64,000 bases of DNA from Tubiluchus corallicola (GCA_030141605.1 JAQGDQ010002387.1:211691-275690); one strand, 5' to 3'; positions 35,630 through 63,300 are shown, counted from the stretch's first letter. The notes: a model not told the origin generated them from the letters alone. Program-made: numbers and translations.

Positions 35630-38390
35630 ATATTTATTAGTGTCAAAAATACATACAATGCAAGAAAAAACAAGGCATACATACAATTTCGATTTTGAAA
35701 TATACAAGAAAAAACAAGACACACATACAATTTCGATTTTGAAATATAATGATACTATATACAAACAAAACAATTACTAATAAAACAAATATTATTAAAT
35801 CTGCTTGTTAGTTGTATTAGTTACTTAAATGAAACGTTCAATGATTAGTATTTAAAATAAATTGTCATTCCTTAGGCCTCATTTTCAATGGTATGATTAT
35901 TACATAGTATATTGTTCTTCATGTCTTAAAAACGCTTTTTCAACATAATCAATAAATGCCTTAATTACTTCCAAATCATTACTTCTCATCAGGAATAAAA
36001 ATTTATCAGCATCGCTCATAAGGAAAAATTCTGGTATAATTACATTGATGCGATTATATAATTTCTTTCTAAAATCATTGTAATATGGGTTTTTATAACA
36101 AAGTGTAATTGGTCTTCGATTTCATTTCTTAAATAGTATGAGCGTATACCATTTCCAGCTGGGATTTTTCAAGGTTTAACGTACCTCCCTCTTTCAATAC
36201 ACAAAGTATGAGAGCTGATTCTCAGTTTTGTAAATTTTGTTATAGCATATTTGGAATAACCAGAAAGTAAATAGTTTCCTAGTTGATATTGTTTTTTGAA
36301 GGTACGATACGTTCGCAGTTTGTTTTGTCCATCAGGTTTGTTATTATTATGGATTTCTTCTTCCCAAAACAAAGTATAATCAGTTTTTATGAAGTAGTCG
36401 CTTAGGTGAAAACGTTGTCTGGTTATTCCACACGTGTTCAAAGCTAAATACACATAATGTATACTTAACAAAAGTAGTCCAACAAAAACAGCTAAGTTTC
36501 GGTTTTCGTTATAAGCAGTGGCGGATTGTATACTTAATTATTTTAATAAAAATGGGGGAAACGGCCACGTTCTGCCCTAGTCGCACATTTGCTTGATTTG
36601 TTATCGACATTCAAAAGAAATCTGCATAATTTAATATTGGCATCTTCGCTTGGCGCACTATCAAATTTAGTTTGAATAAGCGGAGAATTGGTTTTAATTT
36701 TAGTAATGCTAGGTCCCCATACACAAGAGCCATACAGCATGATAGGTACTACAGTATGTTCAAATAATTTGATAATAGTAAGTGGATTTGAGATGTACTT
36801 TTTCATGCAGTAAAAAGCTTTTAGGCATTTGTCTTTTAGTTTGGTGCAGCTTTGCCTGAAAGCACCGACCACTAAGTATTCAGAGGATTGGACTATTTTC
36901 AGCTTATCAGACCCATAGGTAAAGTTCAAGTCTTTTAGACTTCTACTTCTGCCTGCTTTGTTAAAAACAATAATTTCTGTCTTTTTAGTGTTAACTTCTA
37001 GAGCCCATTCGCTACAATAATTATTAAGCTTATTTAAGGCATTGTTGCAATCCTGACTGGGAACAAGAAAGTAAGACATATCATCTGCATAGAGAAGACA
37101 TTTGGTTTCAAAATTGCCTAGACTGACGGGATCGCATTCATTAGATGTGAAAACTGTTGGTAAGTCATTGATATACAAGGAAAAGAGAACTGAGCTCAAC
37201 GTACATCCTTGCTTAACACCTAAGGAGGATGCTATATCTATATACCGCCAGCGATTTTAACGGAGTAATTAGCTTTAGAGTAAATATTTTGCAGAATCTT
37301 AAGAAAATAACCACCTATATTATTTTATAGCAATTTATAGTACAATCCAATTCGCCAAACTGCGTCAAAGGCTTTGCGCAAATCAACGAAATAACAACAA
37401 AGTTTATGATTTGGTTTCAAAAATTTATCAATAAGTGTTTTTAATGTAAACATATGGTCACTGGTACGACAGCCTTTTTTAAATCCTATTTAAAATGCAG
37501 AATGTTATTATTAGGAATTTTCTAACCTGTTATTAAGAATGCTCGCAAATAATTTGCTTAAGCTGCTTGAAATGGCAATTCCGCTATAATTGTTTGGATC
37601 TGTTGCATTTCCACTTTTGTATATTGGGATGATGTGGCTTTGCTTCCACTGGGTAGGATAGCAGGAACCAGAAAAGACCAAATTTATTAATTTACGAAGA
37701 TAGGGAACCATAACTTCGCTTGAAGCATTTCCTTTATTAACCGTCTGTACCAGCAGTTTTGTTATTAAAACTGTTTAATGACAATCAGGATTTCCGTATC
37801 AGTCATTCTATAATCTAACTGAGAAAAAGAAGTGTAATTTTCTTCAATATACTCTGACAATTTTTTAGTTTTTCTCCAATGGCTGTCATTACTATTCAAT
37901 GAACTTCGAAAATGTTCTACCCAAACTATTGGGTCAATGTCATCGCCCTTGTTTAAGGTTTTTTTCTGGGTTCTGATTATCTTTCAAGTGTTTGATTAGG
38001 TTCCAAAAGACCTTCGGATTTTTAGTTTCCAGTTCAGTTAGTTGTTTCATAACACGGGCTTGATATTCCCTGTGTGCTTGCTGCTTGATCTTTTTATAAT
38101 ACCTCTGTTCTTTAAAGTACAGTTCTCGTAAGTTTCTATTATAAGGGGCGCTTTGCAATTTAAAATGCAAGTATTTTAGTCGGTTGTGGGCTGCTTTCCA
38201 TTGACTGTTAAACCATTTCTTATCTGGCCAGTGTTTTTGCTGGGCTACGCGTTTATTATTATTTAGAGTATTTCGTTCTTTAATTATCTTAGATGCAGCT
38301 ATAAAGCAAAATGGAATTAATGTTATTTACAGCCGCTTCAATCTCGTTCTCGTTTACATTATAATTAAAGCAATGTAGTATAGTGCATTA
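35630..38390 (-). mobile_element. Decayed, 5'-truncated non-LTR retrotransposon (RTEX-like)
   Basis: Broken RT frames: WKQSHIIPIYKSG..DPNNY.GIAISS.LSKLF, GFKKGCRTSDHMF, FVDLRKAFDAV, GVKQGCTLS..LFSLYINDL, LLYADD. The C-terminus reads KLRTYRTFK..KLRISSHTLCIERGRY..EIEDQLHF. Many stops and frameshifts. A 44-bp tandem duplication (35661-35748) lies in its 3' region. Confidence 0.88.
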
Positions 38391-39252: not shown

Positions 39253-40590
39253 ATGGCCTGTTCATCGTCCAAAGACTACTCCATAGATATGGCGGCAATA
39301 TGGAAAAGAGCAAACTGGTCTGAAAGATTGTCCAGCCTGTTTGATAGTGGTACGTTGCAAGACGTTGAGTTCATCGTAGGTGAAAAACGCATCACAATAA
39401 GAGCAAATAAACTCGTCTTGTCGTTGGTAAGTCGAGTATTTTTTACAATGTTTTATGGATCACTACCAGAGGTCACTAACACACCTATTGAAGTTCCAGA
39501 TATCAGAGTGAAAGTGTTCAACATTTTTCTCGAATTTGTTTATACCGACAGGATTCCCATAACTGATTGTAGTGTGTTATGTCATGATGGGGTTCCTTCA
39601 GCATTTGAACTAATTTATGTGGCCAAGAAATATGACGTGAGAAGGTTGGAAAGCATTGCGGCTAAGTACATTATGTCACATCTGACAGTTGATAATGTGT
39701 GTGATGTCATTAGAGAAAACTATTTGTACGAAAACCGGGACGTGCACGAACAGTGCTATCAACTAATTGATTTGTACCCGCTGGATGTGTTTACGTCTAA
39801 GAGTTTCACAAAGCTAGCCTACACAGAATTGCTGGAAATAGTTAAGAAAATAAACAACAAAATTTCTGAATTATCAATTTATGAATCAGTTGTTGGATGG
39901 GCGCGGGCTCAATGCGCCCGGAAAACACTGGCGACTTCTACTGGTAACATTCGCAACGAAATGAGCGACGTACTGTACGAAATTCGTTTTCCCTTGATGG
40001 ATCTGCAAGAGTTTGCGGATGGACCCGCTCAGTCCGGCATATTAACCGATAGTGAAGTAGCTAACATTTTCTTAAACAGGCATGGATCATTAAACAAAGT
40101 ACAGCTGATTTTTCCCGGAGAAAATAGGTGCGATTTTATGCTAAACTCACAAGACTTTAGGGGTAGGCCTACGCTTGTCTTTAGAGTGCCAGTACAGCAC
40201 ATTGATGGACTTCAACGCGGAAAAGGAAAGTGGTTTTCCTCTAAACCATGTTATCCTATTGCGGGAGTGTCCTGGGCGCTAGAACTTAGGAAGTGTGGCC
40301 CACTTACCTGTAATTCTGAGACTGAAAAAGGCCAAAGTTGTTGTTTTCATTTCCGGTTTGAACCCCATTGTGCAGCAGAAGAACGAAGAACTAGAACATT
40401 GTTCAGGGAATCCAGGATAGTGCTGGTGAATCTTGATCCACAAAAAAGCATCGAAAAAAAGCTGGCTGAGGACAAAACACCAGCTATTTGGTGGGAAGAC
40501 AACTTCATTTCGTCACGTGACTTGCTGACATTTGAAAGTGGCTTTATTATTGCTGACGTGATTACAGTTTACTTTATACCATGTGTTTAA
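39253..40590 (+). CDS. BTB/POZ-BACK protein (BTBD1/2/3/6-like N-terminal part) with C-terminal MATH-like domain; single-exon ORF
   Basis: BTB: DVEFIVG..IRANKLVLSLVSRVFFTMFYGSL..IEVPDI..F..FLEFVYTD. BACK: SELSIYESVVGWARAQC.R..IRFPLMDLQEFADGPAQSGILT. C-terminus: FSSKPCY.IAGVSWALEL..WWEDNFISSRDLL..ESGFI..DVITV. First ATG is 39253. Confidence 0.88.
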   Translation: MACSSSKDYSIDMAAIWKRANWSERLSSLFDSGTLQDVEFIVGEKRITIRANKLVLSLVSRVFFTMFYGSLPEVTNTPIEVPDIRVKVFNIFLEFVYTDRIPITDCSVLCHDGVPSAFELIYVAKKYDVRRLESIAAKYIMSHLTVDNVCDVIRENYLYENRDVHEQCYQLIDLYPLDVFTSKSFTKLAYTELLEIVKKINNKISELSIYESVVGWARAQCARKTLATSTGNIRNEMSDVLYEIRFPLMDLQEFADGPAQSGILTDSEVANIFLNRHGSLNKVQLIFPGENRCDFMLNSQDFRGRPTLVFRVPVQHIDGLQRGKGKWFSSKPCYPIAGVSWALELRKCGPLTCNSETEKGQSCCFHFRFEPHCAAEERRTRTLFRESRIVLVNLDPQKSIEKKLAEDKTPAIWWEDNFISSRDLLTFESGFIIADVITVYFIPCV

Positions 40591-41810: not shown

Positions 41811-42995
41811 ATGATACCAAGGAAAGTTCATGTCAGAGATATTGATGCAGCATTACACACTGGTTTAAAAAATCAGCAATCAGTTGATAAAGTCAAGAGA
41901 AATGCAAAAAGGTGGTTGCATCCGAAGGTATACACCATCCAGGAAATAGAAAATAAAAGTACAGTGAAACCTGGCGATAACAACTACTATCGTGATTGTT
42001 CAGTAACAAGCAATGAGTTGTATTACAAATTGCACCCACTTTTGAATTCTGCAAGGATTTTCGGTCTCTTTCACCTTCCGAAACATCGGCCCGAAAATGC
42101 TTCTCTGCTTGCCTCTTTTTCTGGAGCCACCTGGTGGTCGCTCGTGACACTGCTGTGTGTTACAGCAATATGTGCAAAGTCATTGAAATCTGACACTGGC
42201 AAAGCTGACCTGACGACAGCCACCGGCATTGCACAGTCGTTTGTCTTGTTCTTGGAGGTAATTCTGGTTTTGGTTAGATGGTTCACATTTGTTGCCGGAT
42301 TCAAAATGGCGAATGTTTTCTCAGAATTTGAGAAACAACTTCCTCGTTATATCAATCACAGTAAAGTTACTAACATCAAATCACTTACACAAACTCTCAG
42401 AGAAAATCGGCTTTCATGGGGATTAACCTTGATGGGCTGGGCGGTGATTATAAGTACTTTTTTGTATGCAACAATAAACAAGGTTTTCGAGAACCTGAAT
42501 TCAACTATAACTCTACGTTTGGTATTTATAAATACGGTTTATGTTATCTATGACAAGTTTCAGTTGGCAACTGTCATTTTTGCTGCATACATCGTCGTCT
42601 CGTTGTGCAAAATATTAAATTCTAAATTTAGTTTTCAACACGATGGCCTACGATTGGATACTGACGAAAAGGTGAATAATTTCTTGGACAAGCAAAGAGG
42701 ATTCATTCTTCTAATTGAAGTTGTGGATGAGACAATATCACCAATGCTTTTGATGATTTGTCTCGGAAGTTTCATGGTGATCGTTGTTCAAATTTATCTT
42801 TACAGCCATAATTATCACTCCGGTATTCCACCAGGTTATTTACAGGAATTTGTCCACGTGTTTTCTACTCTACAAAGTTTCTCATTCCTACTGATTCTTA
42901 TCAGCTGTACAGCTCTGCACGAAAAAGTCATGCAAGTTGAAAGAATTTTACATTCTATAAAACGAAGTCAATTGGGAGAAATGGCCAGATATGAG
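41811..42995 (+). CDS. GR/GRL-like chemoreceptor variable first exon A (TM1-TM6); predicted to splice to 50166
   Basis: 395 codons from ATG 41811. LHPLLNSARIFGLFH (GR-type pre-TM1 motif) and six hydrophobic segments. Ends ARYE at a phase-0 donor GAG|gtaaat; paralogous to B-E. Confidence 0.85.
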
Positions 42996-44128
42996 GTAAA
43001 TACATGAAATAATTCTCAGACCTGGCACTCTTCATATGCTATGTAGATTTTTTTTATTTCAGGAAATATAAAGAATAAAAGCAAGCATGTAGTGATGGAA
43101 AGTTAAACAGCTTCTAAGAAAATAAAACAAATTAGAACTGTTTGGAAATTTGCAGCAAGAGTTAGTTGTACAAGTGTACAAGCCACTAGAGCTCTAACAA
43201 TAAGAAAACAAAGGTAACACCTTGCCAAAACACACTCGATGGCTTGAAACACTTTATACGTGAGTGAAGTGCAACAGATAAAAGAAAAATATATATTTTA
43301 CATTAACTGTTGTTCAAAACAATTCATGTGCAGGTATTATTGCCTAAAAGGATGATGTTCTTCTATTCTTAGCCCTTAGCAGTTCCAGTGTTGGAAATTT
43401 TTTTCAAGTTTCTTTCCAGGTCTTTGCATCCGAAAACTGATTACACGTTCAAACTAATAATTAGTTGTCTTTAATTAAGTTACTGCACACTTGATAATTA
43501 ATAATAAAACCATTGCCTCCATACTCAACCAAGATCAGTCTCTGAATCATGTGAGATGCAATTTAAAAACTTTAAGATAGAGTTAATTGCTTACAACAGA
43601 TGTAGAGACGATTGCTGCTTTAATCTGGTACTTTAAGTTAAAAAAGTAAGCGTCTTATATCCAACGCTTATCACATCTTGTTGATTCCTAATATTCCAAT
43701 GCCACCTTCCTGGTGGGTCAATAACTAGATATAGTTGCTGTGCTGCAAATATTAGCAGTGTGACCTGCTAATTTTATTCTATCTGTGAATTATTCCATCC
43801 ATTACATCACTGAGGCACTTATTGCAGTATGCTATTATTTAACAATAAACGCCAACAATAAATGTGTGCAAGGCTGTTATGCATTTGTCTAGCAAATGGT
43901 AAATAGATTGAAATTAAAAGCATTTGTGTTTACACTACTTTGTTCTGCACAACATTAGCAAGCAACAGAAAAACCACCTTATTTATAGCAAAAACAATTC
44001 AGGACTTTTAGATCACGTTCAGAATTATTGCAATCGAGAAGTACTCCTCGTATGCTAGTTCAAGAAAAGGAAATAAATATTACTCAAAGTTAAACAAGAC
44101 AGGTGTTTTCGATTTTTCTACAAATGAT

Positions 44129-45241
44129 ATGAAGAAATCTAAAGACGTTTCAAAGCAAGTTGTGAGTACCATAAGTTGCATAGCTTGGAAATCATGTGAT
44201 GACGATCCTTCAATGCCCATCAACCGTGAAATGGAAGAAAAGAATTTCACAGAAATTTTGATGATGAATGATATGTATAAAAGCTTAAAACCTTTGCTGC
44301 AATCTGCCAAAGTTTTTGGATTATTTCACGTACCAAATCAATACCAGGAGAGTTTTCGCATGCTGTCATATTTTTCTAGAAGCACCACTTGGTCGTTCAT
44401 TGTTTTTCTTGGTGTAGTGTCAATTTGCATAAAGTCTTTGGTTGCAGATGTACAACATGCTAACCTTACTACAGCCAGTGGTATTGCACAATCATTCGTC
44501 TTACTGTTGGAAGTAATTCTCACACTTGTGAGATTTTTTGCATTCATTGTTGGGTTCAAGATGAGAAAGGTGTTCATCGAGTTTGACAAGATGGCATGCA
44601 AGAGGAAATCATATTTTGCTAAATCTGATTCAACTACAACCAAAATTTCTGTAACTTTTATATCCTATTTCCTGGCAGTAATTGGATGGGTTACAATGAT
44701 TGTGACATTTGTTTATGCAGCAATTCATAAAGTAAAAGTTCATATCGGCAACGACAATAATACTATGGGCAACATAATTATATCAGCAGCATATCTCATT
44801 TACGACAAATTTCAACTCGCAGTGGTAATATTTCCTGCCTATATCACTACTTGTCTGTGTATCACCTTGATACAAAAATTTAAAAATGCAAAACTTGGTG
44901 AAACCACAGACCAGAATCTTCACGTCTTCTTAGAAAAGCAAACCAAATTCATTCATTTAATCAAAGTTATTGATGAGACAATGTCACCAATGCTTTTGAT
45001 GATTTGTTTCGGAAGCTTCATAGTGGTCGTTGTTCAAATTTATCTTTACAGCCATAATTATCACTGTGACATTCCACCAGGTTATCTACAGGAATTTGTC
45101 CACGTGTTTTCTACTCTGCAAAGTTTTTCATTCCTACTGATTCTTATCAGCTGCACAGCACTTCACGAAAAAGTCATGCAAGCTGAAAAAATTTTACATT
45201 CTATAAAGCGAAGTCAATTGGGAGAAATGGCCAGATATGAG
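44129..45241 (+). CDS. GR/GRL-like variable first exon B; predicted to splice to 50166
   Basis: 371 codons; LKPLLQSAKVFGLFH; ends ARYE, donor GAG|gtaatt, phase 0. Confidence 0.85.
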
Positions 45242-46893
45242 GTAATTACATTAAATAGTATCTTATGCTTATAAGGGACAGTTGTAGATGACGGAATGCT
45301 CAAAAAATCAAATCTCAAGTTCTGTTTTTGCTTGCTAATGGCATTCTAACAAAATATTATAAAGCACCTTTGCAAATACAGTTGCAATTATAAGACCATA
45401 ATAAAATAATTAACTGATCAAATGAATTAATAATTTACGTGTGAATGTTAAAATGTTACAAACTACAACAAAATTGCAAATGCAATGTTGCAAAGGCTAT
45501 AAAGGCTACAAAGGTAGTTTTACAGTCTATTGTTCTGCTGGATTCTGCATATAAACAGATTGAATCACTTGAGCATGTATGTATAGGCTAACAAATTTAA
45601 ATGTAAGCTTCATCCAAGGCTTGAAGGCCTGAAAGGTGGCTGCACATGACAGTATATCAGTTTATCCCCAACAATTATAGTTCTTTGTATTTTAGCCAGT
45701 GCAGTTCATTACACAAGTTGGGGTAATCCAGGTATGAAACTGTCTACACCATTGAGACTTTGCCAGTGGTGTAAATCGTGCCATCAGCTGCAAGTGAAAA
45801 CAGAGGCAATAAGCACATTTACCCGTGACATCACGTAGTGTCACCTTTAAACGCACAAGATTCTTGTACAGATTTTGTAACTTAAAATTAACATTTATTA
45901 TCACGTAAAGTAAAATTTTGCATTTTAGCACACTATATTTCTTTTATAAATTACTCCTAGAGTCACGTCTGAGGACTTCACGTATTTGAAATTGAAAAAT
46001 TACAAAATCGTGTTTATCTTATTTGCAGTTAACTGTGCAAGGTCTGTGAAGACCTTTTTATTGCTAATTTGAAAGAATATGCTTTCGCTCATTGAATCAT
46101 AAATGTTGACAATGCGTTTGTTTGCCGCTCCTCATATTTTTGCTATGGACGTCTCCGAATGCCTAATGTTTGCTTATAAACTCTGCTTTTAACAGAGGCT
46201 TGTTATCTCACTAGTTTTTACCAAAAATTGTTTCCTGTCAACTACAGTTTTACTTGCTTCAAGAAGGTCGACCTATCACTACCAAGTTATTAATAAAAAA
46301 AATTTCTCGCCCTGTTTTTAAACCTGTTTTTTACTGTGGGAATGCCTCAGCATATTACCATAATTCAACGCTGTCAGTTCTTTAGAACTTCTGTCTTTCA
46401 GATTTTATGACATTTCTGACTTAAAAAATGACGAAGAACATGGACATTCAATCGCACACACACATTGTGCATTGCGCCAAAAAAAATTAAAGGGGCAAAT
46501 GCTTTTTTTAATGATTTATTGGCTCTTTGTGTTGCCAACTGATCTATGTTCATCCAGCAGAGGATTAGTGTTGCCTAGTTCAGCTTTAACTCATCCACCA
46601 TAGAAGCCGAGAATAATCGATTAATACGTTCACAAGACTTTGAGTTTTTTCTTAGTTATAGTTTTAGCTGGTAATGAAATACTATTTTTTGAGACATGTC
46701 GAGGACAATCGTGTGAAAGTAACTTCTACAAAGCTCACAACTATTTAAGTATAGTCTTTTTTAATCTGAGTTCAGGGACTATTAGCGATCACCCTGACGA
46801 TTATAAAATTAGTCATGGTAATATGAACACATAATTAATTAGTTAATTAAATTTCGATACCAAACTTGCAAGACAGGCGTGTAAAATATTAGA

Positions 46894-46966
46894 AATACTG
46901 TCTGTATTTGAACCACTGCCCTTCTGCTTACAAGGCAGATGCTTCAGATCAATAAGCTACTTTATT
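46894..46966 (-). pseudogene. Degenerate tRNA-Thr(TGT)-like sequence (tRNA pseudogene or SINE head)
   Basis: Minus strand: TAGCTTATTGATCTGAAGC (D arm), TCTGC-CTTGTAA-GCAGA (perfect anticodon stem, TGT), GGTTCAAAT (B box); 73 nt. Acceptor and T stems are mismatched. Confidence 0.6.
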
Positions 46967-47540
46967 ACTCAGCGAAAAGTTTTAACATTTCCTGTCTATA
47001 AACTTTGGTATCAAAATTTAGTTATATGTGTTTTTGTAATATCTTTCATAACAATCTTGACATTACGATTATAATAATTAAAAGTGGTCTTGTTTACTCA
47101 AAACAAAGGCACAGTTAATAAACTTGGTACAACCAAAACAGGTTTAACTGCGAAGGTATAATAGTAGAAAGTACAATTTTAGTGTTTTTCATTCATGCAA
47201 TAATAATTTCTAAAATGAATGCCTTTTTATAATGAATGCTCATTATATAAGTCAGTTTCTTTTTTGACTTCGATCATGGTGTATAGCGTAGGAATTCTAA
47301 AGGAGAGAAGAAATCGCTGCAATTATGGGCAAACTGACTATTTACCCAATTATAAATGTATCAAAAGAAAATGTTCTCCAATGTTTCTTTGTTTGGCATG
47401 CAGCACTCAACCACATTTCCTTTGGCTATTGTGATCTGTTAATGCATCAGCTTGAGGCTTCTACGAAGGAACCTAGGTCACCAGAGTGCTTCAAACACTT
47501 ATACTTGAACGAAGTGATGTTTTTGTTAAATTGTTTCATA

Positions 47541-48677
47541 ATGGGCACCAGAATACCTTCTGCTCCAACAAATACTTTTAAGAACTCAGTAATAAAAAGT
47601 CCAACGAAATGGACACCAATTCAGACAATGGTTGGTGATGGAAAGCTTGCAAATAACGTGATTTCAGAGTCTGGCGACTTCATATTGTTGGACACAGTGA
47701 GTTTTTATAAAAGCTTGCATCCACTTCTAACGTTAGCTAAAGTATTTGGCCTATTTCACATTCCAAGTAGAAAAAACACGCAAAGGAGATTCCAAGCTCT
47801 TCTATGTGGCAGTACGACGTGGTCATTAGCAATGGCTGTTGGAGTCACAATAGTGTGTACCTACGACTTAATTACGGACTTGAGAGCTGCAGACTTGATT
47901 ACTCCAGCTGGTATAGCACAATCATTTGTACTTTTTCTCGAGGTTGTGAATACTATCATTAGATGGTTTGCTTTTGTTTCAGCTTTTAAAGTGACCAAGT
48001 TGTTTTCCAAGTTTGAGTGTACTACAGAAAACAGTGCCGAACGGACAAAACTACTTAGGCTCAAATTGTTTAAACGAGAGCTAAAAGACAGCACTGTCAG
48101 CTGGACATTAGCCTTTGTAGGATGGATTGCGATGAGCTGCACATTTTTAAACGCTTTAGTAGAGAAAGTGAAATATATCTACGAAGATACATCCATTAGG
48201 AGTTGCGTTTTAAATATCGTATTTTTATTCTACGATAAATTACAACTTTCCACGATCATGTTTCCAGCCTTTATTATAGTTGGTGTTTGTTGCACTCTGC
48301 TCTCCTACTTTGAAACTCAAAAGGAACCCCCGAAAGTCAATACCGATAAAAATGTGTTAAGTTATCTGAAGGGACAGTCAGCAATTATAGAAGTTATTGA
48401 AGTCATCGATGCAGCTATATCACCCTCGCTTTTCATGATTTGTTTCGTGAGTTTCATGGTAACTGGATTGCAAGTATATCTCTACAGTCACAACTATCAC
48501 TTTGGTGTACCAAAAGGTTTTATGCAAGAGTTTATATTCGTCTATTCTACTCTGCAAACTGTCTCGTTCTTATTAATTCTGATCGGCTGCACAGCTGTGC
48601 ATGAAAAGATTTTGCAAGCGGAAAGAGCGTTACGCAAAGTTGAACTTTATCAACTGGGTGACGTGGCACGCTATGAG
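47541..48677 (+). CDS. GR/GRL-like variable first exon C; predicted to splice to 50166 (ORF is open from 47325)
   Basis: LHPLLTLAKVFGLFH; ends ARYE, donor GAG|gtataa, phase 0. ATG 47541 gives a length comparable to the paralogs (379 codons). Confidence 0.83.
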
Positions 48678-48746
48678 GTATAATATTGGGCCTATACCAA
48701 ATTAATTCTTTTTTTAAGGCATGTCGCCTCTGAAGTGAGGAAAATT

Positions 48747-49056
<310 letters not shown>

Positions 49057-50165
49057 AATTCTTTATTGCTATAAAATTTAGTAGTTTACTACCCATTCAA
49101 AAATTGACAGCATAACCAGTGTTTCCACTGCTGTGAGTATTAGTGTCAGGATAAAATAAAATTATGAGTAAAAACATGAGTGAAGCTATGATCATTACAT
49201 CGATTGCACAAAAGTCTACATTCATTTGACACGGTTCAGCGAGTACTTAACACAATTTACAATATTTGCAAGTAATAGTTTTGTCTAAGATATTAAAATT
49301 GTGTAAATATGAAATTGCATGAGTGGTTTTGATTTTTTTTGAGTTGGTGACACTACAAGTTGAATGTTGATAATAATAAAAAGGTGTGATTTGATATTTT
49401 GTATTAGGTCTTTTTGATGGCTAGCATGTTTTTAGTTCATTTTTGAATCCTTTTAGCGTCACTGCAGATTTTACATTAAATAGCTGAATACTCTTGCTTT
49501 TGTGTTAGTAACGGAAACAACACAGTAAAATTAAATAAAGCAAAAATAAAACAAAGCAAGAATAAAGCTCAGCGAAACAAAGCATAGACATAAAATATTA
49601 CAGCTTCTGAAACACACTGAGACTTGTAAAATCTGCATGTTACGATCAAAATAGAGTTTTGAAAATAATTTGTGTTGCCACTACTCAATGTTTAACGCCT
49701 TCATGCCGATTTTTATTTAGAATAATAGGTAAACAAGCAGAATGAAGCGAAGTATAAAATACACGACAATGTTTAGAGCGGCAAAATAATGTAAAATGGT
49801 CAGAAAAAAGAAAAAAATGCGACATGAAACAATAGTTATAACGAGGCAGCAGTACAATAATCATTATCGTTTATTAATATTATGACGACCAAATACTTAG
49901 CGCCAGTTTATCGATGAACATCACGTTTGTCAAACTGCTTGCCTTTGAATATTAATAAAATTAGGATGCAAATGCAGCTAAGAATTCAAGTTTATTGCAG
50001 CAAAATGTTTATGTTCACGGGTAAAGTCATTGGGTGAACGTAATTATCCGATGAGATTGAAAATGACGATGATGGTGGTGATAATGATTGTGATTGTTAC
50101 TCTGGTAATGACGAAAATGATAGTGATGGTGATAAATGAGAGCCATAATTGAATTGCTTTTGCAG

Positions 50166-50255
50166 GTACTTATTCATCTCCAACAACTATCATCAAGATC
50201 TATTGGCCTCACAATCTGGAAATTCTACGTCATCAATCGAAACTTTGCTTTTATC
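50166..50255 (+). CDS. GR/GRL constant exon 2 (90 nt, phase 0/0; intracellular loop 3/TM7a)
   Basis: ttgcttttgcag|GTA CTT ATT CAT...TTT ATC|gtgagt. Encodes VLIHLQQLSSRSIGLTIWKFYVINRNFAFI, resembling the GR 'F..QL....I.hT..gfF.in' segment. Confidence 0.88.
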
Positions 50256-50372
50256 GTGAGTTCAGTTTGTTGCTATTTTGGAAATATAGCTTCGCCCAGT
50301 TTAATTTTTAAAGTGGAGATTAGATTTTTGATCTTTTCACTGATGAACTCAATAAACAGTTTTGTAACGTGA

Positions 50373-50530
50373 GGCGAGTTGAGTAGCGGAGTGGTCATGG
50401 CATGCGTTTGTCAGTGAATGGCTCGTAAGTGCCCGGGTTTGATGCTCCCTGAGGGAAATTTCATTCGCCATGCTAATTTCTTGTTGCGCATATTATACCC
50501 ATCTTCCGTACATATACATATATATGAATG
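50373..50530 (+). mobile_element. Possible tRNA-derived SINE remnant in GRL intron 2
   Basis: A-box-like TAGCGGAGTGG (50384-50394), B-box-like GGTTTGATGC (~50436-50445), and a TA-rich tail near 50510-50525. Confidence 0.35.
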
Positions 50531-50883
50531 TGATTAAAACAGCTCTACCAGCTCAGTGGTTCATCTTAATGGCTATTCATGATAACGAGTTTGGCATTGA
50601 TCTCCCCAAAAAACAGTGGACCTATTATTAAGAGCTGGATTTTGGGTTGCAATACATTTGCAATGTATTTTATAAAGATTAAAAATAAAAACGTGCTTTA
50701 CCTAAAGCACCTTCATCACAAAACAAATTCATATTTTGCTTTGAGTTCTTGTTGTCAAATAAACTCTTGAATAAAAGTTACCAAGCTAGTTTGTTACTAT
50801 TGCATGATAAATTTATAACTGTTATAACGTTTATAACTGTTGTTGAGTTGCTTAGTTTAACAATAAATGTTGTTGTTTTGCAG

Positions 50884-51045
50884 ATTGTCAGTGGTATCTG
50901 CACGTTTTTCATCGTGATAGTACAATTTCATCAGACAATTATTGGAAAGCAACAGACAAACGTGACACTCCTTATGGACGCCTTTGCCAATGAAGCTTGT
51001 CATATCTGCAGACGATTTCTCAACAACCTTAGTGATCCTGATTAG
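50884..51045 (+). CDS. GR/GRL constant terminal exon 3 (TM7b pore helix + C-tail)
   Basis: tgttgttgttttgcag|ATT GTC AGT GGT.... Encodes IVSGICTFFIVIVQFHQT...SDPD*. TFFIVIVQF matches the GR family signature TYhhhhhQF with Y->F. Confidence 0.88.
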   Translation: MVSGICTFFIVIVQFHQTIIGKQQTNVTLLMDAFANEACHICRRFLNNLSDPD

Positions 51046-52800: not shown

Positions 52801-53901
52801 ATGAAAGCACATCATAACACATGGACCATCGGACTGACTGGTTCACTTAAAGTCACGAAGGAGCACGTTAAAACACTATCTCCTAGAAAACTCAATACAG
52901 GTTCCCATAATGATTCCAACTGCCAATTTTACCAGAAATTACGTCCACTATTGATTTTTGCCACAATTTTTGGCTTGTTTCACATGCCTAACAGAAAGAC
53001 GCAGAAACGGTTTGGGTTGGTGGTATTGTCCTACAGTACCATGTGGTCTTTGACTATTCAGATTTTCGTCACAGTTCCAACTATATGGTCCCTTATGCGT
53101 GATACCAGTAAAATTGATCTCACAGCAGCAGAAGGAATTGCCCGGTTATTTGTCATGTTTATGGAAGTAACACTCACATGTATAAGATGGTTGGTATTCT
53201 TTGCTGGATTTAAACTGGTAGATGTCTTAGCAGAATGCAGAGAAGTCAGCAAAATTCAATATCCAAATATGCTGGTTACAGTCATCTCTGGGAAACAGAA
53301 GTACTTGGAGAAAGGAATATCATGGATATTTGCCACGTTAGGAGGGATCATAATTGTCTTTTCGATTATTACAGAATCTCACACTTTGTGGAAGCGGTTT
53401 AAAAGCGGAGAAGAAGAAATTTCATTTCTGCCGATTCTGATTATGTATTTGGTTTCTGACAAGCTGCTGTTGGCAACTGTGATGTTTCCTGCTTATATTA
53501 TAACTTGCTTTTCCTACGTGCTAATATCCCATCAAAGATCATTTCAGAAAACAGAAGAAAATCTTTCAGCTGAAGAAGTCATGTTGTTTTTGAAAAGACA
53601 TTCAAAGTACATTCGCGTTGTCAAGGTCATAGACAACGCTATATCTTCTACACTGCTGATGATCTGTCTGGCAAGTTTTATGGTAGTTGTAGTACAAATT
53701 TATCTTTTCAGTCACAATTTCTATGCTAACATTTCCCACGGATATCTGCAACAATATTTGTATGTCTACTCTACCATGCAGTCTGTGTCATTTCTGCTGA
53801 TTCTTGTTAGCTGTACAGCAGTACATGAAAGCGTTATGGAGGCTGAAAATAAGTTACATGCGTTGAACAAAGAGAGCCTGGGGGAGACAGCACGTTATGA
53901 G
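52801..53901 (+). CDS. GR/GRL-like variable first exon D (constant exons not in window downstream)
   Basis: 367 codons; LRPLLIFATIFGLFH; ends ARYE, donor GAG|gtaaat, phase 0. Confidence 0.83.
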
Positions 53902-55919
53902 GTAAATTTATTGTATTGCATTTGTCTATCAGCAATATTTCACTAATTTCTGTTTTAAATCACTCATGTTTTGTGTGTAGGTTTGTATGTATTTATATAT
54001 TCTCTCCATTATCTATCGTAGTTTTTCGTACTTAGTATTTCTTTGTGTTGTCTTACAAAGAGATGATCTTGCTTACATGATTGCCTCCTGTTCTGAAAGT
54101 AGGGTGGGAGTTTAGCAGCCAAAACCTGAAATTGCTCAAAATATGGATTCCTCCATGGTGACCTTATTTTTGTGTTGGTTTTAGTATTGTTTTTTGTTGA
54201 ATTCTTTTATTCAGATAATAATGCAACACAGCTATCTTGTTGACTTTCATCATTTACACGAAATTTGATGATTATAATCAATTCCAAGCGATAAAGCGGC
54301 TAATGTGGAATTGTACTGTCTAGACATCCTATACCGCAGATCTTCTATTAATTAAATCAAAGCTGATTAAGATTAAATTATTTTTCATTATTGGTCTGCA
54401 GGGTGTAATTAGATTTCACGAAATCTGATCTTGATAAAATCTTTCCGAAATTTTAGTAACTCAGTAAACCGACTCACGTTCTAACTCCTTATTTTAACAG
54501 CTGCAAGAAAACAACAGAAAATAAACACTAGAGGCATTTACCTTTACCAACCCAACTATGAGAAAAATCGCGAATTTCGGATAGTATCTGCTACATAGGC
54601 CCCTGGGTCTATTTGCTCTTAAACCCAAAACATTGAGATCGAATGTTGTACAAGCCAACCGAGGCTATACAACCATAAGTCGTGCTTTAATATGGTGTGC
54701 GGTAAAACCGCACAAGTAAAAATGACACAAGAAAAAAACATGGTAAAAGTGGCACAGGAAAAATGGCACAAATGGAAATCGCACAATTGAAAATGGCATA
54801 TATGTTATTTTGATGCAATTAATTTCTATAAAAAAAACTAGAATGCGCCCAGTAGGAAGCAAATCTCTGCCAAAGGCGAACAATCCTAAACTTATTCGTC
54901 TGATTCCTTTGATTAAAAAAATTTACCCCAAAGATAAACCAAGCAAACATACAAAAATACACCTGTATTGGTATTATATAGACTAGACTCACAAAATATT
55001 TGTTCATTAAACAGATTTATAATCAATAATGCACGAATGTCCCACATACAATTTGAACTAGCCTTCTACACGTATTTTTTCTTCCTTATTGTTTCTTTTT
55101 ATGCATTTTGAATCATGTATTGGTAGTATTGCTGCTGGCACTGCTACCTCTTGTGCTCCAAAAATGTTATAGTCCCAAGTTATTTTTAGTATGCTTTATG
55201 ACTGCCATATAATAATCGTTTTGTTACTTTGTTGTAACACGACAATTAGACTAATACTTTGAGTGACAGATATGAAATTAAATGTGTTGTAGCACAAAGG
55301 GTCAGCAAACAAGAACGTTATCAGCAAATTGGCAAATAACCCGATAGCATGCAGGACAACTTATTGTAACTACAAAGGACAATTATGCTGTGGTGTCTGT
55401 TTGTAGCAGTTGTTTTGAATTGCGATTGTGTTTTGCAACAATATACGATGATGTAAAATAGCCTGTCTCATCAAAAACGCGATAAAGCATTTCTAAAACT
55501 CAATGTAATGAAACAAGAAGTCAAGTTATAATTATTTTGTGCGGACTTCAAGGTTTCCATTGTGATTTGGCCAGTTTAAAAGAAACACCTACCTAATCAG
55601 TCAGAGACGATCATTGGCAAAATTTAGCAATTATTAAAAAGCTTGCTTGCCACTGTCCAGCTTAAGTAAGTTTATGTGTTGACTGTCCTACATTATGTGG
55701 TTCTGTGACACTTGACATTTCTGTTGTTCCATTTAACAAATTGAGCCATAAAAACTGCAGTCTTTTAATCCCGGTCATATTACCAACACCAATTGTATAA
55801 GTACCAAATTTATTGGCAAATAAGCCAATTAAGGAAGCACATAGATTTCTAATATGAACGTGTCTTACTAGTAGCCAAATATAGATCAAGCTCCATTTTG
55901 TCGTCTGAAGATAAGTAAA

Positions 55920-57047
55920 ATGGAGAAGTCTCGTGATGCAAGGTCCGTTGACTTGGACAATAATCCTAAACATCTAAAGCAAGAAGAGGAGATAAACACT
56001 GAGTCACCTCCCACAAGTGGCAATAACTTCAATGTTATTTTTGAAACTGGTTTGTATCAGCAACTAAGGCCACTGTTGACAAGCGCAATGTTTTTTGGTC
56101 TCTTTCATATTCCTAACTGCAGAAAGAAAAATGCACTATTTGGACTTGTATTGTTGTGCTCTCGTAGCACCATTTGGTCATTAATTAATCTGATCTTTGT
56201 CACTTCAACAACTGTGCTCTTGTTTCTGATTGATTATGAGGATATTGAGACAGTGATACTCACAACGCCAACAGGAATTGCAAAAATGTTTGTCATTTTA
56301 ATGCAGGCAACATTATCTTTGATAAGATGGCTGATCTTCTTTGCTGGTCTCAGAATGGCACACATTATGGAAAAATCATATGAGGTTCAAGAAGCAGAAA
56401 AAATCTATTCTTCTCTTATTCCTACAAAAAAGAACAAGAAGAAAAATTTCGAGAAAAGAATGGTATGGAGCCTGACTGTATTTGGATGGATTGTTATTTT
56501 TTACTCGTCTGTCAAGGAAGTTTTTGTTTTCTGTGAGATATTTGTGGAAGATCTGGAAAAGGGAGCCATTTTTGACATTGTGGCGATAATCATACTTTTC
56601 CTGTATGACAAATTTCTGTTGGCAACCGTCATGTTTCCCGCATTTACCATAACGAGTTTATCTTTTATATTAAAGACTAATCAAAATTTGGCACTGAAAA
56701 TGGAAAATCTCTCAGATGAAGAGATTATGTTATTTTTGAAAAGGCAAACGAAGTATGTTCATCTGGTCAAGGCCATAGACAACGTCATATCTCCGACATT
56801 GTTGATGATCTGTCTGGCAAGTTTTATGGTAGTTGTGGTACAAATTTATCTTTTCAGTCACAATTTCTATTCTGGCATTCCCCCAGGTCATCTGCAGCAA
56901 TATTTGTATGTCTACTCTACCATGCAGTCTGTATCATTTCTGATGATTCTGGTTAGCTGTACAGCAGTACATGAAAGCGTTATGGAGGCTGAAACAAAGT
57001 TACATGAGTTGAATAAAGAAAGTCTGGGGGACACAGTACGTTATGAA
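55920..57047 (+). CDS. GR/GRL-like variable first exon E (constant exons not in window downstream)
   Basis: 376 codons; LRPLLTSAMFFGLFH; ends VRYE, donor GAA|gtaagt, phase 0. Confidence 0.83.
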
Positions 57048-57929
57048 GTAAGTTTTTATCATTACCTTGCTGAAGACATTTATAAATGTCCCTCTTGTTT
57101 ACAAGTATGAAGACGATAGTCTAAATGGTAGATTATCTTAAAGAAACGGCCCCAAATGATGGTAATCGTGAACAGAAAGATGTTTTCTTAAAAATGTTTA
57201 TTTATTTTTCACATTATGCGTGCAATCCAACAGTAACAAAACAAAATTCATGCTTGTGAAGCAGCAGTGAGCTAAGGTAATTACGAAAATGTATGAAGAA
57301 ATATCAAGATTAGCAAAGAAAATAAGCAAACAGATTGATTAAACTGTCATATTCCAAATTACTCAAAACAAGCGTTCTAGAGTTATCGAAAGTCAGCACC
57401 AACGAGGTGCATCAGTGGCTTTGTATGAAATGCACAATAGTTAAATGTTTAGAAATTTTGATAGTGTACCACGTGAACACCCAGAATCTCCCATTCTCCC
57501 AGGAAGCTTTAAAAATTCCCCCACGTACATCAGTTTTGGACCACATAAGCAACGCTATACAGCAACTAAATAATAATAACTTCAGCATAGACGTGTTACG
57601 TGATGACACCAGCAAAGGTGTTGATATATATTTTTGAGCTGATCGTTTTGCCCAACTGCTACAATGTGTTAAATTGTTAGGGTACTCTAAACTTGCTGAA
57701 CTATCTTCGTGTGACATCTTCAGCTCAGGTACCCTCAGCGAGTACTTCGTGACCGTGTTCAATACTCTCTCTTGGAGGTTTCATTTAGTATACTATTTTA
57801 AGCTGCCTACTTTGCTGGTTGAGGATAGTTCACCTCTGCCAGCTTAGTGACTTATCTCTGAGAGTTAACATTGAAATAAATTAGGCTCTGGTCTCTTACC
57901 ACAAATATAACAACGAATAGGCCCTGATC

Positions 57930-58830
57930 TATTCGATGTTTATTCGTTTTCCTACAAAGAGAATCATCTATAAAGCAGCTTATCCAAAGATTTTCTGAAC
58001 TTATTACGCGATAGTATGCCAGCTGACCACCCATCGGTGGACAAGTTAAATAAGATACTGTTATTGTTTCGCCTAGCTAAGATGCTTACAATGACAAGCA
58101 AGAGAGAATATGGTCTTACGTATTTACAGAAATATGATGATAAAGGCTTGAAATCTTAAATTACCCAACTATATTTGCCTGTTAGTCTTAATAATGTGCA
58201 CTTGTGTTAATAGAGTTTGGCAACTAAAAGTTTAGCTTTATCGACCATCAGAAAGTTTTGAAATTAACATATGGGGCTAGTAATTCAATTACTTTACTCA
58301 TGTAAGGTAATCTTATAGCATTGTAAAATGGACATGTTAATAAATAAAACAACTCATCTCTACTTTCTTAAAACTACTGATTAAAGATTTGTTTCTAGTA
58401 TCAATGGAAAGCTTATTGCATTCATTTATATAAGACAGGAAGAAACTTGATTGAAAGTAGTTAGAATTGCAAGACATTAACGACAAATTTTCACTATTAT
58501 GCAAATTATAATAAGTTCTATCATAAACATGTAGCACAAGTAGAGAAGTAAGGTAACACGGAGAAGCTCCTTTAACTATTTTATAAAATAAAAGCATTTT
58601 ATGAATGTATCTTTTGTGTGACATGTTTTCCCAAGAAAGATCTTTCAGCAATTTCTCACCGTATGTAACAAAAACAGCCCCTGTCACTACTAACGAAGCA
58701 TGGTACTGAATTTGCTCAACAACTAGAACACTTGCTTCTGAACAATATTTTAGCAATCACAGTATTCAAATGAGAGGATGAGGAAAAATAACTATAATAT
58801 AATATGTTGGGATTTAACGCTGGATATCAG
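57930..58830 (-). mobile_element. Decayed CR1-group LINE 3' fragment
   Basis: ORF 58337-58756 reads EQIQYHASLVVTGA..LLKDLSWENMSHKR..HKMLLFYKIV.G.SP.YL..YNL..FQSSFF, the post-RT region of CR1-type ORF2. Boundaries are approximate. Confidence 0.75.
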
Positions 58831-59635
58831 CTCTGAAAAGAAGTCGAGTTAATTACTCTTAGGCGCAGTTTGCAGTTGCACTCAAAGGGATAGACGGCAG
58901 CACATGTCCATTGAGTAAATGAAGCCAGTATTAAGGAATCAGAATCAGAATCAGTGTAAGTTAAGGAAGAATCAGAATCAGTATTAAGTTAAGGGGCGAG
59001 GTCGACTTGTGCGAGCATCAAGTGAAAAATAGTCAAGTTAAAGTCGACCAATACTTTGGTGCTGTCAAGGCACTGAGTCAGTAGGAGAATAAAGAAGTGA
59101 AGTGCGAAAGAATAAAGTATTCAAATATTGGGTGTACCCAAAAACGATGTTGTCACTTCCTGTATCGCCTACTTTCTTCTAGAATTTTGCAGTATAATTT
59201 TGGCGGACAGAAAAGTTAATAATCTGTGCAGAGGATTGTTAATAATCGGTTTTAGTGGTTTTACGTAGTGCGCTCTTCAGTGAAAAACTGTATCATTTAA
59301 ATTTGCTAATCCATGGTTAAAACCTAAGTAACAAATTGTCAATTATTCTTTTTCGAAAATTAAAGACATCGCATCCTTGAATTTTTTTAAATATGTATTC
59401 GATTCAAGATTTTCGTATTTAAGTTTGTGTAAATTTGTTTTTTATAATTATTATTTCTATAGTTACTCAATTGGACCCAAATACCTGCTAGACCCCAAAG
59501 TCATTCAGTACGATTCCGGCTCCTAAACGCAACCATACGAATGGCAAGACTATAATTGTTTGATTGGCCAGATATTAGTAACCGTGTCATTCTGGTATCG
59601 TTCACGTTGCTAGTAAAACAGCAAAGAAGCGAAAT

Positions 59636-60360
59636 TAATAATAATAATAATAAAAAAATAAAAAATAAAATAATTATTATAATTATAATAATAATAATAG
59701 TAACCTTTATTTAAAGTCAGCATTAAATTCAAAAGACAACACAAGTCTGCCACGACGCTTTTGTGGTTTCTATCTCTAATGACCAGTGTTGAAATGCTCA
59801 AATCTTTCTGTGCAAAATCTAAATATGCTAACGTTTGTCCGCCTGCTGTCCTTTCTGGCTGGTTCTATCGTTTGCTGAAGACCTTTAATGAATTAGTTTC
59901 AGGTAGTCAAAGCATATGACCATAGTACCTGGAATATTAATGGTGCATTTTATAGAGTTGGGAATAACACTGTCTCAAAATTTAATGAAGATGGCTTTGT
60001 GGCCTATTTGCCAGTGACATTATTTGTCTAATTGAAGCACATTCTAATTCTAGTCCACAGATTATGCTTAAAATCTATACATGTGTACAAAATTGTCATC
60101 CCAATTCAGATAAGCGCCATTTTGGAGATTGTTCTAGTGAAGAATTCAATTCGCCGCGGTGCAAAATCCATTGACAGTAAATGTTCCGAATATATTTCGT
60201 TAAAATGTTAAAAGATTTCTTTGATCTTGAAAGAGATGTGTATATCAGTGCAACATATGGTATCACCAAGGGATGCGTCTTTTAATTTGCGAAATAATTT
60301 GGATGTTTTTACTTTATTAAAAAATGATATTATTAAATTTAGAATGCAAGATGAACCTGA
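59636..60360 (-). mobile_element. Highly decayed RTE-like LINE 3' fragment with (TAT)n tail
   Basis: Minus-strand pieces RYYGHML*LPETNSLK ... GGQTLAYLDFAQKDL ... RDRN resemble the RTE C-terminus (RWFGHV.RM..GRP..W.D.V..DL..DR). The trinucleotide tail is at 59636-59700. Confidence 0.5.
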
Positions 60361-60368
60361 TTTCATTT

Positions 60369-63300
60369 TATATATATATATATATATATAATAATCTTTA
60401 TTTGCCATTAAAAACATTGATAATCACTGATAAAAACTTTATAGAGATAATCAATCAGTGTTAGTTAATAAAAACTTACACTGCTGAAGGCAAATGCGTC
60501 AGTGCAATCTAAACTACTGTGCAGTAATGACGAATAAAAGCAAACATATTTACAACTATACACAAAAAAATATAAAAAAAACTATGATTTAATTAATATG
60601 GCCGTGGGTATATGAATTCGGAATTAGTGTGTATGTTGTCGTACTGGTGTGATGGTATTTCATATCTGGTTAATATTAGTGATTTTAATTTTGTTTTAAA
60701 TGCTGATAGGGACTTGATTTGTTTAACCTGTAATGGTAGAGAATTCCAAAGTAAAATTGCTTGTTTGATTACAGAGTTCGTTCCATAGTGGGTATTTGTC
60801 CTAATTTGTTTTAGATTGCTTGTTCTGGAATTAACGATAGGATTTGGAAAAAAGATAAATCTGTTATTCTGGAATGGTTTGCTGATGTTGTTAATATATT
60901 TATATATAAAAAGCAGAGTAAAATATTCTTTGTGTGCTTCAATGATTGGGAATTTTAAAGTTTTTCTCAGGTTAGTTGTTGAAGCTTTGAATTTTTGTCT
61001 ACTTGCCTTGTGTTTGTATGAGTACCCAGCTATCAATCTCAACGCATAGTTTTGAAGGAGATTTAATTTTAAGTAATTTTCTCTTTTGGTTTTTTGAAGT
61101 AGCGTACATCCATATAAGAAGTGTGGTAGAACTAAAGTTTTATATATTAGTGTTTTAGTTTCCTTTGTTAGTTGCCCTTTAACTTGTCGGAGATATGATG
61201 TGCTAGATGCCATTTTTGTGTATATGTTATTAAAGTGATCATCCCATGAAAGATTATTGTCTACTTGTATGCCCAGGAATTTAACATTGTTAGTTTTTTT
61301 TGATTACAGCATTATCTATTGTCAAAGTGGTTGATGATGCATCATTAGTATTTAATGAGGGTGACAGTATCATGAATTCTGTTTTGTCATTATTCATTTT
61401 TAGCTTGTAATGACTAAATGCCATATTTATATTTTTTATATCTTCTTCTAAATAATTTTTTGCAGTTTGGACATTTTCATGGGCTATGTAGATTGTAGTG
61501 TCATCAGCGTATTGCGTTATTTGTGAGTGTTTTAATACACTGGATATGTTGTTTATATATAGGCAAAATAATAACGGACCTAGTAGTGTTCCTTGCGGTA
61601 TACCTCTGTTTAACGTGGCCCAGTCAGAAAAGTTGGTTGTATCTAACTTTACTCGTTGTTGTCTATCTTTGAGATAATTTTGTATCAGTTTTAACGATAT
61701 CGAATCTAATCCGATTTGTTTTAAATTATCGTAAAGTAGTTCGTGATTAATGCTATCGAAAGCTTTACTTAAATCCAAAAATGCTGCTAAAATGTATTGC
61801 TTGTTGTCTAAACTATGTCTCCAATTTTCTGTTGTGTGTATTAGGGCGTCAATGGTTGAATGATGTTTACGGAAGCCAAACTGATGTTTTGATAAAAGTT
61901 CATGTTTATTTACATATGAATTTATCTGATCATAAATTACCCTTTCCCAAACTTTGCCGAAACAATGGATTACGGAAATTGGGCGATAATTCATGGGATC
62001 ACATTTTGGATCTTTTTTATGGATTGGAGTCACATTTGCCATTTTACATACCGTTGGAAATTTGCCTCTCATAATTATCTGATTAGCAATGTAAGTCATA
62101 TGCGGGGCTATTACAGATGCGCTATCTTTTAGAATTTTGATAGGAATATCTGATGGTCCACTCCCTTTGTTGGAACTTAGGTTATTTAATATGTCGTTAA
62201 TTTCTCCTACTGTGACGCTTTTGAATGAGAATACTGTGTTAGACGATTTGTTTTTTAATTTATTAATTATATTATTGCTAATATGAGAAGCCACTCCCTT
62301 AAAATTTCCAAGATTCAGGAATATTGCATTTAACGCGTTGGCAATATCTTTGGGTTTTGTAATAACAGTGTTGTTGATCTTAATTTCGTCAACACGCGTT
62401 AGTTTGTTACGGCATTTATTTATTACATTGTTAATAATTTTCCATTTTTCTTTGGTATTTGTTGCGTTTTTACATTGTTGTTGTATATGTTTATTTTTCA
62501 AGCATTTATTAAGATTATTAAATTGATTTCTCTTTTTTTTATAATTGTTATGATTGTTTTTAGTTTTGTTCTTTTCCCATATATTATACATTCTGTTTTT
62601 CGCTATTCTTAGTTTGCCAAGTTCAGGTGTTGTCCAGGTACTTTCGTTATTGAGTTTGCTTTGTTGTGGGATTTGCTTTACGTTTTTATATGGTGCATGT
62701 ACATTAAGGCAATATTCGACATTATATGTCAGAATATTAACTTGTGTATCTATTTTATCAGTCATATATATGGAGGTCCAGTTCATTTTTGCTAAGTCGA
62801 TTAAGTATGAATGTTTGTTGTATTGGGCGTAGTCTCTCATTAAATGCCAGACTGAATTTTGGTTATTATTATGCTGTGGGGTCATTTATCTACTAATATT
62901 GTGAAATGATGATCTGAATAATCACACGGGAAAGTATCATATGCTACGAAATTATTGTTACTATTCGAAATGAAATGGTCGATTACTGTAGCTGATGTTT
63001 TAGAAATTCGAGTAGGTTTATTGTTGTTAAGTATGTGGACATTATATTGTTTTAAAAGCTCTGTGTATGTTTTGTATGCCAGTGTGTTTGTAGCTAAAAT
63101 ATCAAGGTTGAAATCGCCCATTATAAGAACTTTTTTATTTTCGAAAACACTGCGTTCTAGTTCTTCACTAAAGTATTTGAAAAATGTTTTGTGTTTGAGA
63201 TTGGGTGGTCTATATATGGTTCCTATTACATAGTTCTCAATGCTGCACCAAACAGATTCAATCTTGCCGGTTCTGATGCCTTTCATTTCTTGTGGTCTCA

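Follow-up and report, generated by a model that had tools for sequence, protein, structure and literature searches.

Loci at which several receptors share one C-terminal end are best described among the gustatory receptor (GR) genes of hexapods. Drosophila Gr39a has four large exons, each coding for six transmembrane (TM) helices, and three small shared exons, with RNA support; in the parts of that account that deal with gene structure, the large exons of Gr39a, as those of Gr23a and Gr28b, stand in tandem with a start codon and a splice donor each, the small shared exons code for TM7 together with the C-terminal end, purifying selection is reported and conversion among the copies is mentioned as possible (PMC2204066). 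The relevant sections of other genome papers give 26 such genes for the cockroach Blattella, commonly RNA-supported and with up to 13 isoforms (Gr60a-m; PMC6175461), up to 30 isoforms for beetles, whose loci of this kind include Tribolium TcasGr214 (PMC6720082) and, for hexapod GR loci including those of a firebrat and a dipluran, several long first exons before shared phase-0 C-terminal exons, a pattern wherever annotators of early-hexapod genomes meet it they assume splicing (PMC13388675). Here we describe a probable locus of this kind in a 64 kb stretch of DNA (JAQGDQ010002387.1:211691-275690; hereafter the window, with positions counted from its first letter), where three long exons, A, B and C, precede a single pair of short C-terminal exons, which we call the tail. 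A preliminary description of this DNA had proposed that the three would yield several receptors with one shared C-terminus, and had named Gr28b and Gr39a as precedents; the design is indeed that of those two genes, and its reach was drawn too narrowly, the arrangement being routine across hexapods.

It can be seen in Table 1 that A, B and C are stop-free paralogous frames on one strand. All three end on the residues RYE directly before a GT, in phase 0, and a frame read on past this point meets a stop after 3, 10 and 1 codons, respectively. Two further long exons, D and E, which the preliminary description did not contain, follow the terminal exon in the same orientation and are likewise intact, ending at the same RYE and GT; a profile of the long exons run over the window found exactly these five copies. 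They are 38-54% identical to A (B 54%, C 40%, D 38%), and each starts at an ATG of its own, with an N-terminus unrelated to the others. The start of C is uncertain, as its open frame reaches up to 47301 and holds additional ATGs. Because a GTA donor is kept at the same codon boundary in five of five long exons while the read-through tails are unrelated, the boundary is not due to chance. When joined to the tail, A, B and C give proteins of 478, 454 and 462 amino acids with no internal stop, the introns to the first tail acceptor being 7,170, 4,924 and 1,488 nt and the following one 628 nt. The exon coordinates, the common boundary and the spliced lengths (478, 454 and about 462) of the preliminary description were reproduced exactly. 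Right behind the donor of C, the intron contains a compound AAT/AGT/AAT/AAG microsatellite of about 300 nt (48740-49050).

Table 1. Predicted exons of the receptor locus, gene-conversion tracts and the Shaker gene, with their positions in the window
Feature	Position	Strand	Details
Shaker/Kv1 channel	26538-28031	+	intronless; Pfam Ion_trans, BTB_2
Variable exon A	41811-42995	+	395 codons, stop-free; donor GTAAAT, phase 0
A/B gene-conversion tract	A 42663-43012, B ~44909-45258	+	covers S5, S6, donor and 17 nt of intron
Variable exon B	44129-45241	+	371 codons, stop-free; donor GTAATT, phase 0
Variable exon C	47541-48677	+	closest to tail; 379 codons, stop-free; donor GTATAA
Constant exon 2	50166-50255	+	90 nt, phase 0/0; acceptor TTTTGCAG, donor GTGAGT
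Constant terminal exon	50884-51045	+	acceptor TTTTGCAG, phase 0; TFFIVIVQF, then 38-residue tail and stop
Variable exon D	52801-53901	+	intact; donor GTAAAT
D/E gene-conversion tract	D 53620-53910, E ~56766-57056	+	runs 9 nt into intron
Variable exon E	55920-57047	+	intact; donor GTAAGT

We found the tail only once. When all six frames of the 64 kb were scanned without gaps under BLOSUM62, the 90-nt exon scored 152 against itself and at best 27 elsewhere, and a 15-residue core of the terminal exon scored 75 and at best 34; the best scores of the two were 4 and 16 in the A-B spacer and 12 and 21 in the B-C spacer. A blastn search of the window for a second copy of the tail exons returned short chance matches only, in agreement with the scan, and the pattern [TS][YF]x5QF has a single occurrence, at 50902, for positions above 38000. 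Private tail exons after A or B were therefore rejected, the tail pair of Table 1 being the sole one in the window, as the preliminary description had held. As at Gr39a, it is the small shared exons that are predicted to code for TM7 and the C-terminal end; Gr39a shares three of them (PMC2204066) whereas the locus shares two, the first ancestral intron being absent, and exactly two C-terminal exons are also shared at DponGr38a-d of Dendroctonus (PMC6720082). The locus further differs from Gr39a in its priapulid-like host (see below), in having no detectable sequence kinship with it and in that its splices are predicted ones.

In order to place the encoded proteins, the long exons were scanned separately against Pfam (B from its second codon). 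The 7tm_7 family, which has a curated cut-off of 26.6 bits, matched B (E 1.2e-8, 35.1 bits, model positions 1-311 of 370) and E (E 6.8e-7, 29.4 bits, positions 1-314 of 370), both matches ending about 57 positions before the end of the model. An AlphaFold2 model of exon A, the one on which we ran the fold test, was built from the five-exon alignment. When it was compared with 48,161 chains, the eight matches at Z 16.8-19.9 were all GR, odorant receptor (OR) or Orco structures (root mean square deviation 4.0-4.8 over 264-307 residues) and the next stood at 8.5; likewise, the 19 best listed Foldseek rows were all insect GR, OR or Orco at probability 0.96-1.00 (best E 1.2e-3), those after them having probability 0.15 or less among the matches listed. 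With helices named by their order in the model, exon A runs from S0 through S6 into the first part of S7a of a GR or GR-like (GRL) channel, and as its final residue aligns near Gr43a 384 and BmGr9 406 it is without the C-terminal S7 region.

The tail appears to supply this region. Constant exon 2 likely encodes most of S7a together with a beta-hairpin, and the terminal exon carries TFFIVIVQF, a Y-to-F variant of TYhhhhhQF, which is described as the GR signature in pore helix S7b (bioRxiv 10.1101/2022.12.13.519744; PMC12635824). The ancestral GR C-terminal plan, in the passages that set it out, has phase-0 introns around exons of 69-72 bp and 90 bp and the terminal exon, 90 bp being the ancestral GR/GRL size of the penultimate exon and the size found across hexapods (PMC13388675). 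Our constant exon 2 has that same size, and the second and third ancestral introns are present around it, as judged on size, phase and position before the motif and without alignment to a named GR; loss of the first is also recorded for centipede Gr52 (PMC4244043). In sequence, the predicted joined proteins have lengths and a C-terminal hydrophobic peak that are compatible with a complete seven-helix fold. Past the QF motif the terminal-exon frame continues for 38 residues (50929-51045, + strand) that include a CxxC word, and this stretch would be extracellular and common to all isoforms. It is an unusually long C-terminal tail for a GR.

Several results count against such an identification. 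Exons A, C and D, three of the five, gave no Pfam match at E up to 1; the pLDDT (predicted local distance difference test score) of the exon A model is a moderate 63.8 and that of the other four models 42-47; and Foldseek returned no match of the exon A model at E 0.001 or better. Sequence identity to solved insect GRs and ORs is 7-13%, and homolog searches were blank: none of 3,786 candidates for exon A among 5.8 billion proteins at E 0.001, none of 6,573 candidates for the five-exon profile at E 10, no homolog among 1.84 billion representative proteins at E 0.001, and no match among PDB sequences for either the profile or the 90-nt exon. These blanks are divergence at this sensitivity and no proof of absence. 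A chemoreceptor of the G protein-coupled type was rejected, and an insect Gr39a or Gr28b ortholog is excluded both by the 7-13% identity and by the grouping of the neighbouring Shaker gene with Priapulus. We conclude that the locus is a real GR/GRL of the Gr39a type, a member of the seven-TM ion channels (7TMIC) that probably works like the alternatively spliced GRs of insects without being their ortholog.

The history of the 3' ends bears on whether A and B, with no tail of their own, are alive. The proportion of silent sites that differ (pS) between A and B is 0.77 in the 5' 230 codons and 0.18 in the last 91, and between D and E it is 0.68 in the 5' part and 0.24 in the 3' part. In a breakpoint test that counted only codons for identical amino acids, by permutation and over 10 pairs, codon identity rose from 38/97 before the breakpoint to 77/88 after it for A/B, and from 52/94 to 66/77 for D/E (permutation p 0.0005 in both cases). 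The breakpoint was weaker for A/C (p 0.0055) and B/C (p 0.046) and was lacking in all six cross-cassette pairs (p 0.10-0.57), so that A/B and D/E alone survive correction for the 10 pairs. We conclude that the last ~270 nt of A and B, and of D and E, have been homogenised by regional gene conversion. The A/B tract begins at A residue 285-302, that is, at the start of the fifth long model helix.

The differences that have arisen between A and B since conversion number 10 at 54 silent sites and 7 at 204 replacement sites (p 7e-4); between D and E there are 13 of each (p 1.4e-3). The ratio of replacement to silent divergence (dN/dS) is 0.21-0.24 in the converted tracts and 0.15-0.32 overall where it can be estimated. 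A model in which one copy has been dead since conversion was disfavoured for A/B (p 0.036). The duplicates themselves are old, as the saturation at silent sites of the 5' 230 codons indicates, and in 2,000 trials of a neutral simulation of exon A with point changes only, 33%, 8%, less than 1% and 0% of copies stayed stop-free at 0.02, 0.05, 0.1 and 0.2 substitutions per site. As the 3' ends were homogenised and then purged of amino-acid changes, the tail-less exons are probably alive.

A reading on which C and the tail form the only gene, with A and B as recently dead partial duplicates or as truncated six-helix proteins made by intronic polyadenylation, can draw on the AATAAA/ATTAAA words after the donors of A and B (at 43074, 43121, 45250 and 45400, where we estimate that about one per 400 nt is expected in AT-rich DNA) and on the pseudo-exons noted in descriptions of insect cassettes (PMC2204066, PMC6175461). 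In the same direction point the variants listed within exon A from run X1, three replacement and one silent, which is the neutral ratio in a sample that is too small to carry weight; the three rows listed for D hold one replacement and two silent variants, with 57 further rows in the table. Run X1 behaves as DNA, its contigs covering introns and spacers, and may not be an independent sample; run X2 gave no record over the first stretch examined and two short repeat-like pieces over the second. Also unfavourable to living, tail-sharing exons are the result of the one-copy-dead model for D/E, which fell short of rejection at p 0.097, the G+C content at third codon positions (GC3), which is not consistently higher in the converted tracts and drops in A from 0.41 to 0.33, and the consideration that conversion confined to cassettes could reflect proximity or kinship alone. 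Dead duplicates are nevertheless hard to reconcile with silent-saturated copies that keep intact frames of 1.1-1.2 kb, with purifying selection since the recent conversion, and with a donor at the same codon before unrelated read-through tails, while proteins truncated before S7 would have no pore helix. We consider this reading quite improbable.

The tracts also bear on a reading in which A and B would be separate genes of the ordinary kind that lost their private tail exons to collapse or omission in the assembly. Near-identical tails could collapse, and an X1 contig in which the 3' end of B (45066-45208) shows the exon-A letter at all 13 places indicates that such repeats can confuse assemblers; A's own 3' end is without X1 cover, and this contig represents a haplotype that underwent a newer conversion or else a chimera of the assembly. 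A segregating conversion allele was set aside as its explanation, as shared stretches of more than 31 nt flank the region and a chimera explains it equally. Loss of tails by this route is, in our judgement, highly improbable: the window is without any N, A and B differ in it at 13 places within the tract, and the tail-less layout recurs between D and E. Of the 1,133 nt between A and B, X1 contigs account for 43056-43797 and 43935-44161, bridging the spacer in part, and no joint is listed there.

It is thus very probable that A, B and C are spliced, one at a time and by whatever route, to the shared tail, and fairly probable that this occurs with a separate promoter for each long exon. In that arrangement each long exon would be transcribed from its own start, and the cap-proximal donor of an A (or B) transcript would join the first tail acceptor over 7.2 kb (4.9 kb), the long exons downstream being removed as intron without any acceptor of theirs being used; removal of the 628-nt intron would then join the 90-nt exon to the terminal exon. 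The three receptors so produced (478, 454 and about 462 amino acids) would have distinct sensing parts and the same pore helix. The sections of the structural literature that cover the family place the pocket within S1-S6, have S7b line the pore and form the anchor from S7a with cytosolic S4-S6 (PMC12635824). By this comparison, the suggestion that the receptors have an identical TM7 pore and anchor holds for S7b and most of S7a, which are shared, and fails for the part of the anchor that comes from S4-S6 of the variable exons. As in the rest of the family, the products would form tetrameric ligand-gated cation channels and, since S7a and S7b are identical across them, possibly mixed ones. The converted parts, S5, S6 and the start of S7a, would be those that contact the shared S7. 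Conversion there may be tolerated or favoured, as sister exons must fit one tail, and the likely need of S5-S6 to pack on one S7 would keep them alike, leaving S1-S4 free to diverge and to set ligand preference.

The anatomy, the fold, the motif, the intron positions and the selection all give indirect backing to the central proposal of the preliminary description, that one locus yields several receptors. On the other side, splicing, promoter use and channel function are inferred from sequence, and the following has to be added. A crude scan of the regions upstream of the five long exons found no shared motif, a TATA-like word stands upstream of C only, the C donor is the weakest of the long-exon donors, and pyrimidine-rich AG sites, which would also fit a spliced leader, precede the ATG of A, B, D and E. 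They raise the alternative that A, B and C are internal exons, only one of which at a time is joined to a single upstream leader, non-coding or trans-spliced, so that splicing rather than the promoter makes the choice. The AG sites are within 400 nt of the ATG in four of the five long exons, the promoter scan was blank, and passages on Gr39a describe that gene through mutually exclusive splicing (PMC2204066). On the other hand, the long exons start from separate ATGs and have N-termini unrelated to one another, the AG sites stand at variable distances and are weaker than the tail-exon acceptor TTTTGCAG, C having none at the threshold used, and the same source places the first acceptor of Gr39a only at the shared block (PMC2204066). 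We regard a shared leader as unlikely and retain separate promoters as the preferred arrangement.

A second cassette, with a tail that would lie beyond the window, is the likely nature of exons D and E. In the six-frame scan the best tail-like scores between them (53902-55919) were only 13 and 22, and no tail for E was found in the 6,953 nt that follow it up to the window's end. Among the X1 contigs listed at 80% likeness over the tail and the D/E region there was no paralogous tail, in a table swamped by a repeat. A high-copy interspersed repeat lies between D and E (54700-55050), with a summed X1 contig depth above 2,000 compared with about 10 around it. Trans-splicing is established for Drosophila mod(mdg4) and lola. 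If D and E had no tail and borrowed the upstream one by this means, the missing tail after E and the two intact exons under selection would be accounted for. As the 6,953 nt after E are largely debris of long interspersed nuclear elements (LINEs), a long intron is the simpler reading, and D and E have been homogenised with each other and not with A, B or C, as a separate tail predicts; borrowing by trans-splicing has in our view only the slimmest chance of being correct.

The host was assessed from the intronless Shaker gene, which the preliminary description had taken as a hint that the DNA is not from an insect. Its closest named match is in Priapulus caudatus (among the 120 best of 3,085 matches), and in a tree of 29 chosen matches it nests between two Priapulus paralogs with clade support 0.99/1.0; with all 120 listed matches the same clade of four, in which the window gene is joined by the Priapulus caudatus pair and an unnamed Logan protein, was recovered at 1.0. 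Identity within this clade is 71-73% versus at most 56% for all proteins outside it (trimmed columns, 29-match tree), and the gene is 71% identical to one Priapulus paralog versus about 54% to insect Shakers. On these grounds an insect host was rejected. The gene is apparently of a priapulid-type Kv1 subfamily, the host is almost certainly not an insect, and a priapulid or close scalidophoran is quite probable; the use of a single gene, the long branches and a sample limited to the 120 best of 3,085 matches tell against the narrower assignment. We give an evenly balanced judgement to the whole picture, in which a priapulid-type worm would have its own sequence-orphan GRL family with at least two variable/constant cassettes and a protocadherin-style conversion that fits S5-S6 to a shared pore helix. 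In its widest form, this picture would make the insect design a recurrent route by which protostomes at large enlarge these receptor families, one that the ancient C-terminal introns would have made possible.

The alternatively spliced GR loci used for comparison, as their sources describe them, are all from hexapods, and the receptors of the locus are without a sequence relative in the collections searched. Centipede GRs have the same exon plan, and 'alternatively spliced' is absent from the supplement passages that concern them (PMC4244043 file 57). The GRLs of Nematostella, Trichoplax and spionid annelids resemble the locus in belonging to the 7TMIC, in their TM7 motif and in having kept phase-0 introns near the C-terminus, and differ in that the passages describing them have a few separate genes and no variable/constant cassette (PMC5850775, PMC11730519). 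We found no paper on priapulid GRs, or on the shared-tail design outside hexapods, in the open-access literature, and surveys beyond it may bear on the matter. In Caenorhabditis elegans, egl-47 has N-terminal isoforms. Variable first exons on a constant tail also characterise UGT1A and the clustered protocadherins, the latter showing in fugu, by the account of conversion given there, the same sharp regional conversion at the 3' end within subclusters; the proteins are unrelated to ours, GC3 is raised in fugu and not consistently here, and we found no shared promoter element here (PMC1852091).

What is new here is the host, the divergence of the family, the D/E pair and the conversion pattern, the design itself being already known, and indeed textbook, for insects, which limits the surprise. 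Should the splices prove real and the host a priapulid, a design regarded as an insect speciality would also operate in an early-branching marine ecdysozoan, with receptors so divergent that searches of billions of proteins miss them. This would have a bearing on the timing and number of its origins and on a possible undercount of GRLs in animals other than arthropods. With three sensing modules on one pore helix, the locus would be a natural test of channel modularity, in which conversion would mark S5-S6 as the helices that need compatibility with the pore helix.

A single-frame BTB-BACK gene (39253-40587, + strand) ends about 1.2 kb upstream of exon A. Broken LINE retrotransposon copies occupy 36169-38326 and 58337-62885, both on the - strand, with RVT_1 matches at 36546-37256 and 61293-62885. 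An HTH_psq match with an overlapping frame (24898-25439, - strand) is likely a decayed DNA transposon, which we take to be of the pogo/tigger kind, and a smaller high-copy interspersed repeat was seen with run X1 near 46840-47080.

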